This document shows, piece after piece, positions 5,662-11,068 of a DNA stretch of 11,068 nt. The stretch's first letter is position 1; every line of letters starts with the position of its first letter. Both the position numbers and the translations under genes were made by a program. The notes beneath the pieces were generated by a model. It made no database searches and was not told the origin of the DNA. It saw only the letters and a program-made list of their open reading frames with translations. This stretch comes from Candidatus Omnitrophota bacterium. Its GTDB lineage: Bacteria > Omnitrophota > Gorgyraeia > JABMRG01 > JAFGKX01. The stretch lies in NCBI GenBank assembly GCA_020354945.1, contig CP070655.1:1028037-1039104 (forward strand). The letters run 5' to 3'.

Positions 5662-6081
5662 ATGAAAAAGACCCTAAAGGTAACAGTACTTATTATAATA
5701 ATGATGCTTCTGAATACCGCAACAGTAGAACCAGGGATTTTTGCACAATCCGGTTTAACTGATAGCAATGTTTTTGGGCATCTATGCAGTCTTCTCAAAA
5801 ACGCAAAAACCAGTGATCTTTCTTTTTGCCTGGGGCATATAAGAAATTCTAAAAATAGCAATCATGAGATAGCTAACTTTATATTGACATGGTCTCCGGA
5901 TGCGTATCGAAAACAGATTCCTTCGGTTTTCCGCTCAAAGATAGATAGAGTAATTAAGATATTGAGCACAATAGATTATGAGCAACTCATGATCGATATA
6001 GACCTTATAAAAAATTCTCAACTTACTGTTTCAGAAATGGTCAGGTTGATAAAAGGAACCAGTCTCTATAAAAAGGATTAA
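5662..6081 (+). CDS. Hypothetical exported protein, 139 aa
   Basis: ORF directly downstream of a perfect promoter. Basic N-terminus plus hydrophobic stretch (MKKTLKVTVLIIIMMLL) resembles a Sec signal peptide. No family recognised. Confidence 0.65.
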   Translation: MKKTLKVTVLIIIMMLLNTATVEPGIFAQSGLTDSNVFGHLCSLLKNAKTSDLSFCLGHIRNSKNSNHEIANFILTWSPDAYRKQIPSVFRSKIDRVIKILSTIDYEQLMIDIDLIKNSQLTVSEMVRLIKGTSLYKKD

Positions 6082-6097
6082 GGATTAAGGGGCAATA

Positions 6098-7513
6098 ATG
6101 AGTAAATTCTGCAAAGGATTTTTTATCGGCTTTTTATTTTTTTTATTTATTACTCAAAATACAGCGGCCGAGCCCTATAATCCATATCTAACCCGAGATT
6201 TAGAATCAGAGAAAGGGATTGTTTATGAAAAAGACATCGTAAATGCCGAGAGAGGAAAAACACGGACAAAGAGAGACGGTTGGATAGAATCTGAAAGAGG
6301 TGCCTATACAAAATCGAGCACCTCCTTTTATTTTTCAGACCTTTACTTTGACTTAGGCCAGATTGTTTCAGAACAAGCAATTTTTGATAAAAAAGGAAGG
6401 CCAGTAAAATCCAGCCAGATAATACGCGACCCCGCCAGCCCCAATATTTCACAACAGAGATTATTGAACAATATAGAATATAATCAGAATGGTAAACCGG
6501 TAAGTTATAAAGAGGAGATATTTATTACTGCCAAGGATTATTTAACAGATACTATAGTGAGGTTGCTTTCGACAACGGACGTTTACAAAGTCGAATACAG
6601 CGATTCAGGAAAACCCGTTACTATTTTGGGCAACACAGAAATTATTATCAGTGACGATAAAGGTAACACCTTGCTTACTATAAAAGGCTCATTTACCAAA
6701 CGAGCCAAATGCGACCTTAATGGAAAGATCATCGGATACTACAGATACGGCATTGATAATATTGTAGTAGCGGATGGAGCAGGCGAGATTGTTATAACCG
6801 CGCCACCATTGTTAACTGATACGGAAGATATTGATAAACACCGCGTAGGTATCGTAAGCATAACGGATGAGGCGTACCTGCGGCAAATTTTAAATAGCCA
6901 CCAGTTTATTAATCAGTTATTAGCAAAATTCGGCCTGGCTGAATTATTCTATAAGGCATTTTATACAGAGAAGTTTTACACATCATTGACTTATCTGGAG
7001 ATTGAAAATACACCGGAAGAAGTAATGAGTTTAAAAAATATAACCCTTGCATTTAAAGATTTGATTAAAGAAAGACAAAAAGCTTATGCCTTATTCCGGA
7101 ACGATGTCGATACTTATTATGAGGAATTAGCTAAAACCTTATTTGAGAATACCGGACTTTGGTGGGATAAAACTATTAAACCCCAGGAATATTATGCAGG
7201 CGATGATGAAATTTTAAGCAAGCAGGAATACAGAAAGATGATTGACGACGCTATTATTTCTTTATCATCGAAGATGGATACCTTGACCGCTGCAACAAGC
7301 TTGCCCCGGCAGATACTTTCACTCGAGCAGTATTTACGCACACAGATGATTATGAACTCAAAACTCATTTATATACAGAATCTAAAAAATGCAGTCTCTG
7401 ATATGAACAAAAAAATGTCATTTGTTATACAGGACCTTAGCAGGCCGGTATTGATTCATAGAAAAAATCACATAGAAGCATTGATTGTCCTTCCGGAAAA
7501 GGACCATCGTTAA
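6098..7513 (+). CDS. Hypothetical secreted protein, 471 aa, with YD/RHS-like beta-hairpin motifs in the N-half and a helical-looking C-half
   Basis: Long ORF with RBS AAGGGG (6087-6092) and signal peptide MSKFCKGFFIGFLFFLFITQNTAA|EP. Repeated motifs FDKKGRPV, YNQNGKPV, YSDSGKPV, CDLNGKII. Confidence 0.8.
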   Translation: MSKFCKGFFIGFLFFLFITQNTAAEPYNPYLTRDLESEKGIVYEKDIVNAERGKTRTKRDGWIESERGAYTKSSTSFYFSDLYFDLGQIVSEQAIFDKKGRPVKSSQIIRDPASPNISQQRLLNNIEYNQNGKPVSYKEEIFITAKDYLTDTIVRLLSTTDVYKVEYSDSGKPVTILGNTEIIISDDKGNTLLTIKGSFTKRAKCDLNGKIIGYYRYGIDNIVVADGAGEIVITAPPLLTDTEDIDKHRVGIVSITDEAYLRQILNSHQFINQLLAKFGLAELFYKAFYTEKFYTSLTYLEIENTPEEVMSLKNITLAFKDLIKERQKAYALFRNDVDTYYEELAKTLFENTGLWWDKTIKPQEYYAGDDEILSKQEYRKMIDDAIISLSSKMDTLTAATSLPRQILSLEQYLRTQMIMNSKLIYIQNLKNAVSDMNKKMSFVIQDLSRPVLIHRKNHIEALIVLPEKDHR

Positions 7514-7525
7514 AAGAGAAGATTT

Positions 7526-7573
7526 AAAAATGGGTGGCTGTTGCTAATTTTGTAGTAGCAGCCGCCATTTTTT
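7526..7573 (+). terminator. Intrinsic terminator after the 471-aa gene
   Basis: AAAAATGGGTGGCTGTTGCTA / TAGTAGCAGCCGCCATTTTTT long stem (3 G-U pairs, one bulge), loop ATTTTG, T-tract. Confidence 0.8.
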
Positions 7574-7574
7574 A

Positions 7575-7583
7575 TGTTATAAT
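7575..7583 (+). promoter_or_regulatory. Possible extended -10 sigma70 promoter for the ECF operon
   Basis: TG-t-TATAAT directly after the terminator. No good -35 at 17 nt spacing. Confidence 0.5.
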
Positions 7584-7649
7584 ATGCAACGTAACTTATT
7601 TGTCATCTTTTGGTTAGGGATAAAAAAATGATAAAATTTTTACAAAATA

Positions 7650-7689
7650 TGGAATATTTTGCCCTTTTTTGTGTTTTATATATTGGAAG
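7650..7689 (+). promoter_or_regulatory. Putative ECF sigma-dependent autoregulatory promoter (copy 1)
   Basis: TGGAATA-N10-TTTTGTGTT-T-TATATA, i.e. GGAAT-N17-GTT, just upstream of the likely sigma start at 7706. A second copy with identical spacing lies at 9731-9770. Confidence 0.7.
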
Positions 7690-7705
7690 GCTTAAAAGCG
7701 AAGAT

Positions 7706-8293
7706 ATGCCGCCTTCTTTTGATGTCGACGATGAATTAGTCGCCAAAGCCAAAAAAGGAGACAGGCGGGCATTTGATGAATTGTACAATAAATACAAGCG
7801 CCCCATACTCAATTACATTTATAGATTAACCGGCGATTTTCATCAGGCAGAAGAATTAACACATGAAACATTTATAAGGGTTTACACAAATATTGACCGT
7901 TATATAAAAAAGGCGAAGTTTTCTTCGTGGGTTTACACAATAGCCGGAAATCTAACAAAGAATTTTTTAAGGGACAGAAGTTATATAGAAAAGGTTTCCA
8001 TTGACAAAAAGATTGCTAAAGAAGAAGGCGAAATCTCCCTTCTGGATGTAATTGCTGATGAAACGAAAAGACCGGATGACCAGATCTTAAAGAAGGAGAA
8101 AGAAAGATTGATTCAGCGAGGCATAGACAAGTTAAAACCAAAGCATAAGCAGGTGATAATATTGTGTGATATTCAAGGGTTATCATATGAAGATGCGGCC
8201 GGGATTTTAAAATGCCCGCCGGTTACTGTAGGAAGCCGCCTTTCAAGGGCCAGGGAGAACTTAGCAAGGATTTTAAGGTTTTATGAAAGATAG
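7706..8293 (+). CDS. ECF RNA polymerase sigma-70 factor (RpoE/SigW-like)
   Basis: DDELVAKAKKGDRRAFDELY, region 2 AEELTHETFIRVY...FSSWVYTIAGN, region 4 GLSYEDAAGILKCPPVTVGSRLSRARE. Start set at ATG 7706 because the longer track ORF (7610) runs through promoter-like AT-rich DNA. Confidence 0.93.
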   Translation: MPPSFDVDDELVAKAKKGDRRAFDELYNKYKRPILNYIYRLTGDFHQAEELTHETFIRVYTNIDRYIKKAKFSSWVYTIAGNLTKNFLRDRSYIEKVSIDKKIAKEEGEISLLDVIADETKRPDDQILKKEKERLIQRGIDKLKPKHKQVIILCDIQGLSYEDAAGILKCPPVTVGSRLSRARENLARILRFYER

Positions 8294-8299
8294 AGGTTA

Positions 8300-9730
8300 A
8301 TGAAGATGAATTGCAGAGTCAATTTTAAAGATTTATCGAGGTATACCGACGGTGCATGCACCCAAAAAGAAAAAGAAAGAATAGAATTGCACCTGAAAGA
8401 ATGCCAGGAGTGCAAACAAACCTTAGCCAGACTAAATTTGCTAAAAGCATCTCTGTCTTCCATTGCCCCCGTAAAAGAATCTGAAAGTTTTGATTTTGTA
8501 TTTAATCAAAAGCTTAAAGAGAGATTAGAAGAGGAGGTATCGGTTTCCTTAAATGAGGTTTTAGGAAAGGCCATTTCGAAAATAAGGGATGCATTTGTTC
8601 CCAAGGTGCCTGTTTTGGTTAGGGTTGCTGTTGTGCTGGTTTTGGCTGTCGCAGTATTTGGCGGTTACAACTATTATATATACAGCCGCCTGCCTTTTAT
8701 TGAAACAATTAGCGGAATAGTAAAAGTTTATCGGGCACCTGCTGCAAGATACATTATAGCCAGGCCTAATATGAGGTTAAGAGAAGGCTACAGGATTGAG
8801 ACGGCGCAAGATGCTGTTGTCAATATCATCTCCCGTAACAAATATGCCGCCAGAATCAAAGAAGATTCCGATATAGTAATTGCTAAGTTGGATGTACGGA
8901 ATGGGAATCATTTTACAAAATTTGACATAACAAGCGGTAAATTGATGGTAAATACAACAGAAGCCTTTAAAGGTTCAAATATGTCCATTCAAACGCCAGC
9001 CTGCGAAGCAAAAGTCGTAGGCACAGCATTTGCTATTGATGTTGATAAACCATCCGGAGGCACTACATGGCTGGGGGTTTTGCAAGGAAAAGTAAAGGTG
9101 ACTTCGCAAGGTACGGATGTTTATGTAAATGCCGGACAGAAGACCCAAGTTGAACCCGGTTCACTACCGGATATCCCTACTCTTCTTTCAGATAACGAAT
9201 GGAAACTTATACAAGAATTATATCAGTTAGGTGAAAAACCGCAGGTTGTGTTATTGGTTAGTATGAGAGCAAATAGAGTTGAAGAACTCTTTAAGCCCGC
9301 ACCTTTATATATATCAGATACTACTCCACGGACAATCCCAACAGAATTAGAAGCAATTATACGCATAATCAACCGGGCTATAGAAGATAATGACATGGGG
9401 GCCCACAGATTTGCAATAGGTAGACTGGAACAGCTGCTAAAGAAGCATCCAAATCCAAGGTATAATCCTCAGTTCCTTATGTTTATCGGCTCATATTACT
9501 ATTATATAGGCAATTATGAAAAGGCCATAGATACATTTGACAGGGTGGTAAATGAATATCCTGATTATTCACTTTCAAGCCTTGCCCAATGCGCCGTAGC
9601 AACTATATATCAAAATAACTTAAGGGACAAAAAGAAAGCTACGGCTGGTTTTGAGGAATTACTTGAGAATTTCCCTGACAGCATAGATACGGTTAGAGCC
9701 AGAAAATTTTTCAAAAATTTAAAAAAATAA
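8300..9730 (+). CDS. Membrane-anchored anti-sigma factor: zinc-binding ZAS (zf-HC2) + TM + FecR-like domain + C-terminal TPR
   Basis: MNC...LSRYTDG...ELHLKECQEC (HxxxCxxC); TM VLVRVAVVLVLAVAVFGGY; FecR-like IQTPACEAKVVGTAFAIDV...LGVLQGKVKV...VNAGQKTQV; TPR-like YEKAIDTFDRVVNEYPDYSLSSLAQ and FEELLENFPDS. Lies 6 nt after the ECF gene. ATG 8306 is an alternative start, better spaced from GAGGT 8293-8297. Confidence 0.87.
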   Translation: MKMNCRVNFKDLSRYTDGACTQKEKERIELHLKECQECKQTLARLNLLKASLSSIAPVKESESFDFVFNQKLKERLEEEVSVSLNEVLGKAISKIRDAFVPKVPVLVRVAVVLVLAVAVFGGYNYYIYSRLPFIETISGIVKVYRAPAARYIIARPNMRLREGYRIETAQDAVVNIISRNKYAARIKEDSDIVIAKLDVRNGNHFTKFDITSGKLMVNTTEAFKGSNMSIQTPACEAKVVGTAFAIDVDKPSGGTTWLGVLQGKVKVTSQGTDVYVNAGQKTQVEPGSLPDIPTLLSDNEWKLIQELYQLGEKPQVVLLVSMRANRVEELFKPAPLYISDTTPRTIPTELEAIIRIINRAIEDNDMGAHRFAIGRLEQLLKKHPNPRYNPQFLMFIGSYYYYIGNYEKAIDTFDRVVNEYPDYSLSSLAQCAVATIYQNNLRDKKKATAGFEELLENFPDSIDTVRARKFFKNLKK

Positions 9731-9770
9731 TGGAATAAATTCTTTAGTTTTGTGTTATATATAGTAGAAG
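9731..9770 (+). promoter_or_regulatory. Putative ECF sigma-dependent promoter (copy 2)
   Basis: TGGAATA-N10-TTTTGTGTT-A-TATATA. 29/40 identical to 7650-7689 without gaps, with most mismatches in the spacer. Confidence 0.7.
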
Positions 9771-9857
9771 AACAAAAAGGAGGCTATATAGAGTAAAAAG
9801 AGGACATAAGCCCCTAATCCCCGAAAAAGACCTCAAAAAACCTGAGGTCTTTTTTTT
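9763..9857 (+). ncRNA. Candidate ECF-dependent small RNA (~95 nt; 5' end approximate)
   Basis: Bounded by promoter copy 2 and a perfect terminator. No ATG/GTG/TTG start codon on + inside it. Contains AAGGAGG and a C-rich stretch GCCCCTAATCCCC. Confidence 0.45.
9824..9857 (+). terminator. Strong intrinsic terminator, potentially bidirectional
   Basis: AAAAAGACCTCA-aaaaacc-TGAGGTCTTTTT perfect 12-bp inverted repeat with an 8-T run. Confidence 0.9.
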
Positions 9858-9859
9858 GT

Positions 9860-9888
9860 TTGACTTGCCCTTATGCCATTGTTATACT
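9860..9888 (+). promoter_or_regulatory. sigma70 promoter for gpsA
   Basis: TTGACT (9860-9865), 17 nt, TATACT (9883-9888), with an extended TG at 9880-9881. Confidence 0.75.
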
Positions 9889-9897
9889 TAAAAGACC

Positions 9898-10899
9898 ATG
9901 GATTCTAAGAATACAAAAATAGCTGTTTTAGGTGACGGAGGCTGGGGCACCACGCTTTCCATACTATTGTTCAAAAAAGGATATAAGGTATCGTTGTGGA
10001 GTGCCTTCCCCGATTATACGCAAACTCTTAGAAGGACACGAGAAAATATAAAATTCCTGCCCCAGTTTAAAATACCGGAAGCCGTGCATATAACAGACGA
10101 TATAAAAGAAGCAATTGATGGCGCAGAGATTGTAGTAGTAGCTATTCCTTCGCAGTTCGTTAGAAAGGTTTTGCAGAACCTGAAAGATGTAGATTTATCA
10201 CAGCGCATAATGTTAAGCGTTGTAAAAGGTGTTGAAAAAAAGACATTAAAGCGAGTGTCAGAAATAATAAAAGAAGAAATAAATACAAATAAAATATGTA
10301 TTTTATCAGGACCAACTATTGCCTTAGAGGTAGCTAAGGAGATACCTGCATCAGCTGTTGTGGCCTCAGAAGATATAAATCTTGCCAAACAAATGCAGGA
10401 TGTATTTATGACAGAGAGATTCAGGATTTACACCAGCACAGATGTTATTGGGGTAGAGCTGGGAGGCAGTCTTAAAAACATCATTGCTATAGCTGCCGGA
10501 ATATCTGACGGGTTAGGTTTTGGCACAAATGCAAAGGCAGCCCTTTTTACCAGAGGCCTTGTAGAGATAAAACGATTAGGTATAGCAATAGGCGCTAAAG
10601 AAGAAACCTTTAATGGATTAAGCGGAATTGGGGATCTTATGACTACCTGCATAAGCCCCTATAGCCGAAACCGATATGTTGGCGAGGAAATAGCTAAAGG
10701 GAGGAAACTTACCGAGATAGTCCAGAAGATGGAACAGATAGCAGAAGGAATACACACAACAGAATCAGCTTGCGAATTGGCAAAAAGATATAACGTTGAG
10801 ATGCCGATAACAGAACAGGTTTATAAAGTCCTTTTTGAAAACAAAAACGCCTTAGAGGCTGTAATCGCCTTAATGACGCGCGCAAAAAAAGCAGAATGA
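9898..10899 (+). CDS. gpsA: NAD(P)H-dependent glycerol-3-phosphate dehydrogenase
   Basis: Rossmann motif IAVLGDGGWGT, LSGPTIALEV, GVELGGSLKNIIAIAAG, GLSGIGDLMTTC, SRNR. Confidence 0.97.
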   Translation: MDSKNTKIAVLGDGGWGTTLSILLFKKGYKVSLWSAFPDYTQTLRRTRENIKFLPQFKIPEAVHITDDIKEAIDGAEIVVVAIPSQFVRKVLQNLKDVDLSQRIMLSVVKGVEKKTLKRVSEIIKEEINTNKICILSGPTIALEVAKEIPASAVVASEDINLAKQMQDVFMTERFRIYTSTDVIGVELGGSLKNIIAIAAGISDGLGFGTNAKAALFTRGLVEIKRLGIAIGAKEETFNGLSGIGDLMTTCISPYSRNRYVGEEIAKGRKLTEIVQKMEQIAEGIHTTESACELAKRYNVEMPITEQVYKVLFENKNALEAVIALMTRAKKAE

Positions 10900-10927
10900 A
10901 TATTTAAATTTAAGGGCATGCCATATA

Positions 10928-10960
10928 GGGACAGACGATTTTAACTCTGTCCCCATTTTT
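10928..10960 (+). terminator. Hairpin after gpsA, probable terminator
   Basis: GGGACAGA-N10-TCTGTCCC followed by CATTTTT. Confidence 0.6.
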
Positions 10961-10961
10961 A

Positions 10962-10991
10962 TTGACTTACATATAAACTATTTGATATACT
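10962..10991 (+). promoter_or_regulatory. sigma70 promoter for the tRNA gene
   Basis: TTGACT (10962-10967), 18 nt, TATACT (10986-10991), with an extended TG at 10983-10984. Confidence 0.7.
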
Positions 10992-11022
10992 TATTCATTA
11001 TTGTGTAAATTGACTACAACAT

Positions 11023-11068
11023 CGGGACGTAGCGCAGTTTGGCTAGCGCACTTGAATGGGGTTCAAGG
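11023..11068 (+). tRNA. tRNA-Pro(GGG), 3'-truncated by the window
   Basis: Acceptor 5' strand CGGGACG, TA, D-arm GCGC-AGTTTGGCTA-GCGC, anticodon arm CTTGA-ATGGGGT-TCAAG (anticodon GGG). Confidence 0.92.

Follow-up and report, generated by a model that had tools for sequence, protein, structure and literature searches.

Organization of the sigma factor locus

The window, by which we mean the whole stretch of 11,068 nucleotides analysed here, occupies 1,028,037-1,039,104 of a scaffolded genome of 1.14 Mb (G000) with a G+C content of 38.9% and 129 gaps of 100 N. The organism probably belongs to Candidatus Omnitrophota, the phylum in which look-alike clusters of one of its proteins are most frequent; a near-identical public contig nevertheless carries the label of a Planctomycetia MAG. 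In order, the window carries a phosphoglucomutase fragment, lepA, lepB, a CDP-alcohol phosphatidyltransferase gene, der, plsY, two genes whose products have no Pfam family, genes for an ECF-type sigma factor and an anti-sigma factor, and gpsA. Three sigma-70-family matches above the Pfam cut-off were found genome-wide, and of these only the sigma factor of this locus (7706-8293) has the size of an ECF factor. Across the organism's taxonomic order the arrangement plsY-(unknowns)-sigma-anti-sigma-gpsA is retained. The last part of the locus contains the following genes and gpsA signals:

7706..8293, + strand: gene for an ECF-type sigma factor of 195 aa when read from the ATG at 7706, with Pfam domains Sigma70_r2, Sigma70_r4_2 and Sigma70_ECF
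8300..9730, + strand: anti-sigma factor gene, 476 aa, with zf-HC2, FecR and TPR domains
9860..9888, + strand: gpsA's own sigma-70-type promoter, TTGACT-17-TATACT with an extended TG; the right border of the element described below and not part of it
9898..10899: gpsA

The two proteins encoded between plsY and the sigma gene, of 139 aa (5662-6081) and 471 aa (6098-7513), have no Pfam family. The 471-aa protein adjoins the sigma gene throughout the family and, weakly, in G029. A strong terminator at 7533-7566 separates its gene from the sigma promoter. In G001, a genome of the same genus, the anti-sigma protein (L002, G001:C58) is alignable only from residue 45 onward. Its sigma-binding zf-HC2 head has seemingly been swapped for unrelated residues, for which a frameshift, a deletion or an assembly fault are possible causes. 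At the other side of gpsA, the window ends (11020-11068) in what appears to be the 5′ half of a tRNA gene with a TTGACT-18-TATACT promoter ahead of it; ARAGORN reported no tRNA at 11020-11068, where the gene is cut off by the window end.

A promoter motif repeated at the tail of the sigma operon

The sigma/anti-sigma pair is flanked by two copies of one promoter-like motif, and a third copy is found elsewhere in the genome:

7651..7681, + strand: promoter copy 1, GGAATA-N14-GTGTT-TATAT, ahead of the ECF sigma gene and presumed to be autoregulatory
9732..9762, + strand: promoter copy 2, with a -35-like GGAATA at 9732-9737, 14 nt, a -10-like GTGTT at 9752-9756, and then TATAT
707,854..707,881 of the genome, - strand: third motif copy, about 23 nt before the start of a gene for a 4,583-aa protein

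As the initial annotation had proposed, copy 2 lies directly behind the anti-sigma gene: the stop codon TAA occupies 9728-9730, a single T follows at 9731, and the first base of the -35 box comes 2 nt after the stop. A 31-nt IUPAC pattern, searched with at most one mismatch, matched the window twice, at copies 1 and 2, compared with 0 of 200 shuffles. A shorter pattern run over the whole 1.14-Mb genome gave three matches against none for a reversed-pattern control, and these three sites are the one ahead of the sigma gene, the one ahead of the 4,583-aa protein gene, and the one at the element behind the anti-sigma stop. The sole Pfam match of the 4,583-aa protein is a methyltransferase domain.

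The same pattern matched 3, 3 and 5 times in the other genomes of the family (G001, G002 and G003), compared with 0, 1 and 1 matches for the control. These sites include the front of the sigma gene, the element and, in G002 and G003, the orthologues of the 4,583-aa gene. At the G002 sigma gene the site has GGGTT, which only a looser pattern picked up. An orthologue of the 4,583-aa protein was not found in G001 with the query used, and the sister family gave partial repeat matches only. A looser motif, GGAAT-N15-G(T/G)GTT, stands upstream of the sigma gene at the same place in 15 of 17 orthologous loci, taken from the order of the window organism and two further families. From its position and conservation we infer that the motif is the promoter of the ECF sigma factor. 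More motif sites were observed in the relatives at L053 (G001:C29), L054 (G002:C4) and L062 (G003:C38:60223). Behind them are genes for a zinc-ribbon-like protein of 57 aa and for proteins of 239-288 aa with a signal peptide, and the leaders of the L054 and L062 genes each hold GGAGG(G/T)GATTTTTTTT.

A promoter-to-terminator unit without a gene

Between promoter copy 2 and the gpsA promoter we identified the following features:

9763..9857, + strand: predicted non-coding transcript of about 95 nt, its start inferred from the promoter
9779..9783, + strand: GGAGG, inside a variable 5′ module
9804..9822, + strand: conserved core, ACATAAG followed by CCCCTAATCCCC; the C-rich block at 9811-9822 is the proposed seed
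9823..9857, + strand: Rho-independent terminator, a stem-loop at 9823-9855 with 13 pairs and a 7-nt loop, and a T-run to 9857

The predicted start at about 9763 is 60 nt before the terminator stem, the distance given in the initial annotation, and the stem is slightly longer than the 12 bp given there, with 12 Watson-Crick pairs and one G.U pair. The reading of this interval as an RNA of about 95 nt that lacks a canonical start codon also holds for the predicted start, with no ATG, GTG or TTG in 9763-9857, as does the assignment of a separate promoter to gpsA beyond the terminator (TTGACT-17-TATACT at 9860-9888). The sequence of this gpsA promoter is conserved across the order. The region 7300-11068 contains 6 terminator-like sites including that of the element, where shuffles give 2.9. 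Among the sequencing runs on record, none listed as RNA covers 7600-10900.

The predicted fold of the 95-nt RNA has an energy of -23.4 kcal/mol (z = -3.95), which none of 200 shuffles reached. Immediately upstream of the terminator is the C-rich block, the 12-nt CCCCUAAUCCCC, which is largely unpaired in the predicted folds; in the long forms of the RNA it is partly paired with the internal GGAGG. The GGAGG at 9779-9783 may therefore be either an internal partner of the block or a relic ribosome-binding site.

At the terminator, which the operon requires in any case, transcription of the short RNA and of the sigma/anti-sigma operon would both stop. Type I 3′ UTR sRNAs, of which MicL is an example, are transcribed from a promoter that lies within the upstream gene or at its end, and they share the terminator of its mRNA. 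The unit has this same arrangement, with a promoter at the end of the upstream gene and a single shared terminator. A scan against 4,227 Rfam families at E values up to 10 returned no family, and only chance matches on the hairpin. The best of these over 9795-9889 were Phe_leader, at 22.3 bits against a gathering score of 55, and rimP on the other strand, at 21.5 bits against 47, both of which fall on the terminator hairpin. The Rfam comparison suggested in the initial annotation thus points to no known family. Judged by this comparison the element appears to be undescribed, while its design (ECF-dependent, 3′-end-embedded, with its own promoter) is already known.

Conservation of the unit within one family

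The unit is present behind the anti-sigma stop in all four genomes of the family (f1) and in one metagenome contig (L022, with an anti-sigma protein that is 64% identical), which gives five known sequences, all from one family. The metagenome search yielded two contigs, the second of which (L023) ends within the anti-sigma gene, and the search of genome contigs yielded a single G001-like contig. In G001 the element is split over two contig ends, and the second contig continues into gpsA. The unit is absent from 11 of 11 sister-family loci, where the spacers are unrelated in sequence, range from 85 to 693 nt and contain no promoter copy; the sole sister-family match to the pattern (L016) is inside gpsA. 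Four of these sister-family spacers (L005, L009, L010 and L013) carry long near-perfect palindromes, with arms of about 20-25 bp, where the element would be. In G003 (L003) the element and the gpsA promoter are separated by an insert of about 300 nt, which has long inverted ends and may be a small mobile repeat.

All five sequences keep GGAATAA, the 14-nt spacing, GTGTT-TATA, the block CCCCTAATCCCC and the hairpin, while the sequence of the promoter spacer is variable. The C-rich block is identical at 12 of 12 positions in three sequences and at 11 of 12 in the other two. GGAGG occurs in three of the five and as GGAG in G002, and it is missing from the short metagenome form. The middle part that contains GGAGG and ATATAG shifts in length by +8 and -9 nt and is wholly missing in the metagenome form. 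The RNA of that form would measure about 55 nt, and its promoter has a -35 box that overlaps the anti-sigma stop codon. No ORF or reading frame is shared among the five sequences. Alignment of the spacer in relatives, proposed in the initial annotation as a check for an intact gene, therefore shows a unit conserved at the family level with an ORF between promoter and terminator in 0 of 5.

The terminal hairpin has 13-16 bp in all five sequences, each with a different stem sequence, and a U-run follows it in four of the five. The second half of the block is unpaired in 5 of 5 predicted folds, which have z values from -3.95 to -5.22. Counting pairs on the model-fitted alignment gave 85.7% of cells paired compared with 81.8% when shuffled, a value that 40 of 500 shuffles equalled, and there were two pairs with a two-sided change (122 of 500 shuffles as high). 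Two rows of this alignment are seemingly one base out of register, which explains the weak signal in part; MAFFT and the model alike placed the G002 and metagenome stems out of register. We also observed a G001-like strain in DNA contigs from three other runs, in which 9835 A>G occurs along with 9843 T>C. The two changes affect both partners of the uppermost pair of the stem, and the loop is changed too. The C-rich block is identical in the strain contigs, apart from one contig with an extra C.

A covariance model was built on a 56-nt core and searched against the genome itself, 16 genomes of the order and a sample of 151 genomes from the class. The five sequences score 65.5-80.6 bits and everything else at most 38 bits. 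The second match in its own genome reached 31.8 bits, scores above 65 bits were confined to the four family genomes among the 16 genomes of the order, and among the 151 sampled class genomes they were found only in G000 and G001, the sole family members sampled. Eight lower-scoring matches in the own genome and relatives were inspected and are ordinary terminators without the block.

A complementary ribosome-binding site at a giant gene

We scanned 1,632 ORFs of at least 100 codons, with 9,379 candidate starts and windows from -25 to +6, for complementarity to the core. A single ORF of the 1,632 offers 11 contiguous Watson-Crick pairs, and the next best are nine ORFs with 9 pairs. When sites are ranked by duplex energy the same site is 3rd of 1,633, with two other windows slightly better, and it is the only one of these top three with an unbroken helix. 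The site is:

G000:C1:628,650, - strand: candidate target site GGGGATTAGGG (best candidate GGGGAUUAGGG), ending 2 nt before the ATG and covering the ribosome-binding site

The gene has a TTGACA-17-TATACT promoter upstream and a leader of about 135 nt. In G000 its ORF is 620 codons long, and a scaffold gap begins 40 nt beyond the apparent stop. Judged from its orthologues, the ORF is the head of a giant gene, because those of G001 (87% identical) and G003 (67% identical) continue to 10,645 and 9,348 aa. Across the scaffold gap at G000:C1:626649-626748, genes for desulfoferrodoxin and rubrerythrin are unproven neighbours of the 620-aa ORF.

The orthologues in G001 and G003 have GGGGGTTAGGGT and GGGGGTTAGGGG right before the ATG. 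Both keep GGGGGUUAGGG(U/G) and could thereby form 11-12 pairs with the RNA of the same genome, including one G.U pair; the cognate duplexes have energies of -23.8 and -25.0 kcal/mol within a family range of -22.7 to -25.0. The remainder of the leader differs between G000 and G003. Additionally, the metagenome RNA variant CCCCUAACCCCC, with C for U, is the exact complement of the G003 form GGGGGUUAGGGG. A target orthologue was searched for in G002 and not found. Eight orthologues from the sister family are 53-59% identical, with frames of up to 14,309 aa. They have a single Shine-Dalgarno sequence of the AGGGGGC type 6-8 nt before the ATG, the bipartite form occurs in 0 of 8, and their duplexes with the G000 RNA (-7.6 to -17.3 kcal/mol) are weaker than those of the family. 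The element and the bipartite site thus occur together in 3 genomes, which are kin (G000, G001 and G003), and are missing together from 8; both may come from a single evolutionary event, so we count this co-occurrence as one observation. The sequence GGGGRTTAGGG is not enriched genome-wide, with 2-4 non-self sites compared with 3-5 in reversed-pattern controls, and among its sites that of the giant gene alone is located at a start codon. On these pairing and conservation data, we would give the giant gene at G000:C1:628650 a chance somewhat short of even of being a specific target of the RNA.

Several other complements, and one promoter-like stretch, were considered and set aside. A 12-mer complement at G000:625169 (+) is antisense within a desulfoferrodoxin gene, and those at G000:216323, in G001:C4 and at three G003 sites are not at start codons. 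CGGGATTAGGGG in G002:C121 is apparently within a coding region, and GGGGAAUGGGG, at the ribosome-binding site of a 554-aa G000 paralogue, is not retained in G001 or G003. GTGTTATATATA, in the giant-gene leader of three sister-family genomes, resembles a -10 box but has no GGAAT at the right distance.

Other features of the giant genes were also observed. All 11 orthologues from both families (L086, L066, L067 and L087-L094) have a TTGAC(A/T)-17-TATACT promoter about 100-140 nt upstream of the start, behind which the leader opens with a conserved A-rich stretch of the type TTAAAAAAG..TTAA.AAATATGAAA.AAAGTA. The head domain of the giant protein (L064:3289-5151, - strand) has many stand-alone paralogues of 530-570 aa in every genome of the order, and its structure neighbours in the Atlas, at low TM, are TraB/GumN, DUF5694 and erythromycin-esterase-like proteins. 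The N-termini of the giant target protein and the 4,583-aa protein show a weak likeness, with 12 of 31 residues identical (E = 0.009 in a single comparison), to which we give no weight.

Proposed function of the RNA

Taken together, these observations suggest that 9732-9857 is probably the gene for an ECF-dependent, Hfq-independent small non-coding RNA. The proposal of the initial annotation, an undescribed sRNA at the tail of the sigma operon, thereby gains support from the lack of a matching Rfam family, from the presence of the unit in 5 of 5 family-level sequences and from the conserved complementary ribosome-binding site. A search of the own genome, which is 89% complete, for Hfq (PF17209) gave no match. 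From the sequence we infer four steps: use of copy 2 by the sigma factor, accumulation of the short RNA, pairing and repression.

In the proposed mechanism, the neighbouring ECF sigma factor would transcribe the RNA from the second copy of its own promoter. Once freed from its membrane anti-sigma factor, the sigma factor would increase transcription of its own operon, of the 4,583-aa gene and of the short RNA; in relatives the sigma regulon would add a few secreted or small proteins. The transcript, with a length of about 95 nt in G000 and about 55 nt in the shorter relative, would share its terminator with the sigma/anti-sigma operon. Its C-rich block CCCCUAAUCCCC, held open beside the terminator, would be the working part and would pair with G-rich ribosome-binding sites. 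By pairing over the ribosome-binding site of the other giant gene, the block would prevent initiation there. The long operon mRNA, or a 3′ fragment processed from it, could act likewise, because the operon mRNA passes through the same block to the same terminator.

A wider interpretation, which we offer as speculative and rather unlikely to hold in full, is that the sigma factor, together with the sRNA at the tail of its operon, acts as a switch between two giant proteins. The 4,583-aa gene would be turned on directly, while the other, of more than 9,000 aa in relatives, would be shut off via the RNA; its ribosome-binding site would have been reshaped in the family into a bipartite match, and the RNA itself may have arisen from the 5′ UTR of a target gene that was lost.

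Alternative explanations

The unit could instead be a relic of a lost protein target gene, of which the promoter, a ribosome-binding site and the operon terminator are left, with nothing functional beyond termination of the operon. We consider this unlikely. G036, a distant relative that belongs to another family of the class, has a promoter built in the same way 5 nt behind the anti-sigma stop. Downstream of this promoter come GGGAGGAAGATAAAATG, an ORF of 60 aa and a protein of at least 410 aa with a signal peptide. The G003 element has GGAGGAAGATA at the matching place, and the GGAGG retained in three of the five elements, with GGAG in a fourth, would be the remaining ribosome-binding site. 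However, a relic is expected to decay neutrally, and at a divergence where the anti-sigma proteins are 59-64% identical between genera both promoter boxes and the 12-nt block are kept. The short metagenome form has lost the GGAGG module and retains promoter, block and hairpin, and elsewhere in the genome a ribosome-binding site complementary to the block is conserved. The deleted target gene raised as an alternative in the initial annotation may thus explain the origin of the element, in view of the protein genes driven by the G036 promoter, but it does not describe the present state.

Quite unlikely, in our assessment, is a 3′ UTR element in which the block acts only within the operon mRNA, through stability, protein binding or pairing, and in which the promoter copy is a decoy for the sigma factor or an inconsequential weak promoter. 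The operon mRNA must cross the block to reach its sole terminator, and sRNAs processed from 3′ UTRs are common. Such an element would overlap largely with the sRNA gene that we favour, since seed and target are identical. The promoter itself argues for the latter: both boxes and the exact 14-nt spacing are kept in 5 of 5 sequences around a variable spacer, which is the footprint of a used promoter, and the overlap of the metagenome -35 box with the stop codon indicates that its position is tightly held.

The proximity of gpsA suggests another function, in which the ECF promoter would feed gpsA upon read-through of the terminator (conditional attenuation), tying the supply of glycerol-3-phosphate for phospholipids to the stress response, and the C-rich block would bind a factor that controls termination. 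The sigma pair is indeed found between plsY and gpsA across the order, and the terminator ends 3 nt ahead of the gpsA promoter. We nevertheless find a cis-acting gpsA leader improbable. The hairpin is strong in every sequence, the U-run is lacking in only one, and no alternative anti-terminator fold is predicted. Every locus has gpsA's own conserved promoter, including the 11 sister-family loci without the element, and in G003 the unrelated insert puts the gpsA start 463 nt past the anti-sigma stop, well beyond the element.

It is very improbable that a tiny or non-canonical ORF, such as a start-stop or a mini-ORF of 2-3 codons after GGAGG, is the functional unit: G001 reads GGAGG-TT-ATG-TAG and G002 GGAG-TG-ATG-ATA-TAG, and one frame is open through the entire 95 nt, but ATA replaces ATG in the own genome and in G003, the codon is just 2-3 nt from GGAGG, length differences of +8, -9 and about -36 nt keep no frame, and the short metagenome form is without the GGAGG module.

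Comparison with known systems

A similar arrangement is that of the sigma/anti-sigma pairs of G036 and G029, which have the same sigma family, promoter build and position behind the anti-sigma gene. Their promoter drives protein genes, whereas the candidate promoter would drive 55-95 nt without an ORF that end at a terminator. With respect to the proposed seed, the RNA would resemble RsaE/RoxS of Firmicutes, whose unpaired C-rich motifs pair with G-rich ribosome-binding sites independently of Hfq. The regulators and the phylum are different, and RsaE, which presumably is among the 4,227 Rfam families scanned, gave no match.

MicA, RybB and MicL form the repressor arm of sigma-E in E. coli and are Hfq-dependent; to our knowledge none of them is encoded in the rpoE operon itself. 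The candidate differs from these three sRNAs in its seed and in the lack of a detected Hfq in its 89%-complete genome. They are described as having ECF-dependent promoters and repressing abundant envelope proteins, and the MicL promoter, inside the cutC coding sequence, is similar in placement to the candidate promoter that abuts or overlaps the anti-sigma stop (PMC4102768).

FoxI of Fusobacterium nucleatum is described as an 87-nt sigma-E-dependent sRNA that works without Hfq and represses envelope proteins, pairing across Shine-Dalgarno sequences of targets that include large autotransporters (PMC9546586). By that description the candidate would share with FoxI a short RNA, a strictly ECF-controlled promoter, an organism without Hfq and a role as the non-coding arm of a sigma response (PMC9546586). 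Since FoxI, as reported, also works without Hfq, dependence on Hfq, a feature of the proteobacterial members, does not define the wider kind of ECF-controlled, trans-acting sRNA to which MicA, RybB, MicL, VrrA and FoxI belong. The two RNAs are unrelated in sequence, as judged from the lack of an Rfam match, and FoxI is proven experimentally whereas the candidate is known from its sequence alone. The candidate gene also differs from FoxI in being fused to the tail of the sigma operon, with which it shares a terminator.

Implications for the phylum and its giant genes

A search of the literature on Omnitrophota for sigma factors or sRNAs, with subscription journals and supplements outside its scope, found nothing related, and the giant-gene preprints that were searched held no sigma factor, promoter or small RNA content bearing on the element. 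The parts of the candidate circuit are small, comprising a 195-aa sigma factor, a 31-nt promoter, an RNA of 55-95 nt and a 5′ UTR of about 135 nt, so the circuit can be rebuilt in a laboratory host even though the organism is uncultured. It would in this way offer a concrete and testable handle on the control of giant genes.

The non-coding repressor arm of ECF sigma factors is documented, as set out in the FoxI report, in Proteobacteria and Fusobacterium (PMC9546586). A further case in a remote uncultured phylum, with tiny genomes and no Hfq detected, would support a repeated origin of this two-armed design. If the switch between the two giant proteins holds true, it would be the first regulatory logic proposed for the giant genes of the phylum.
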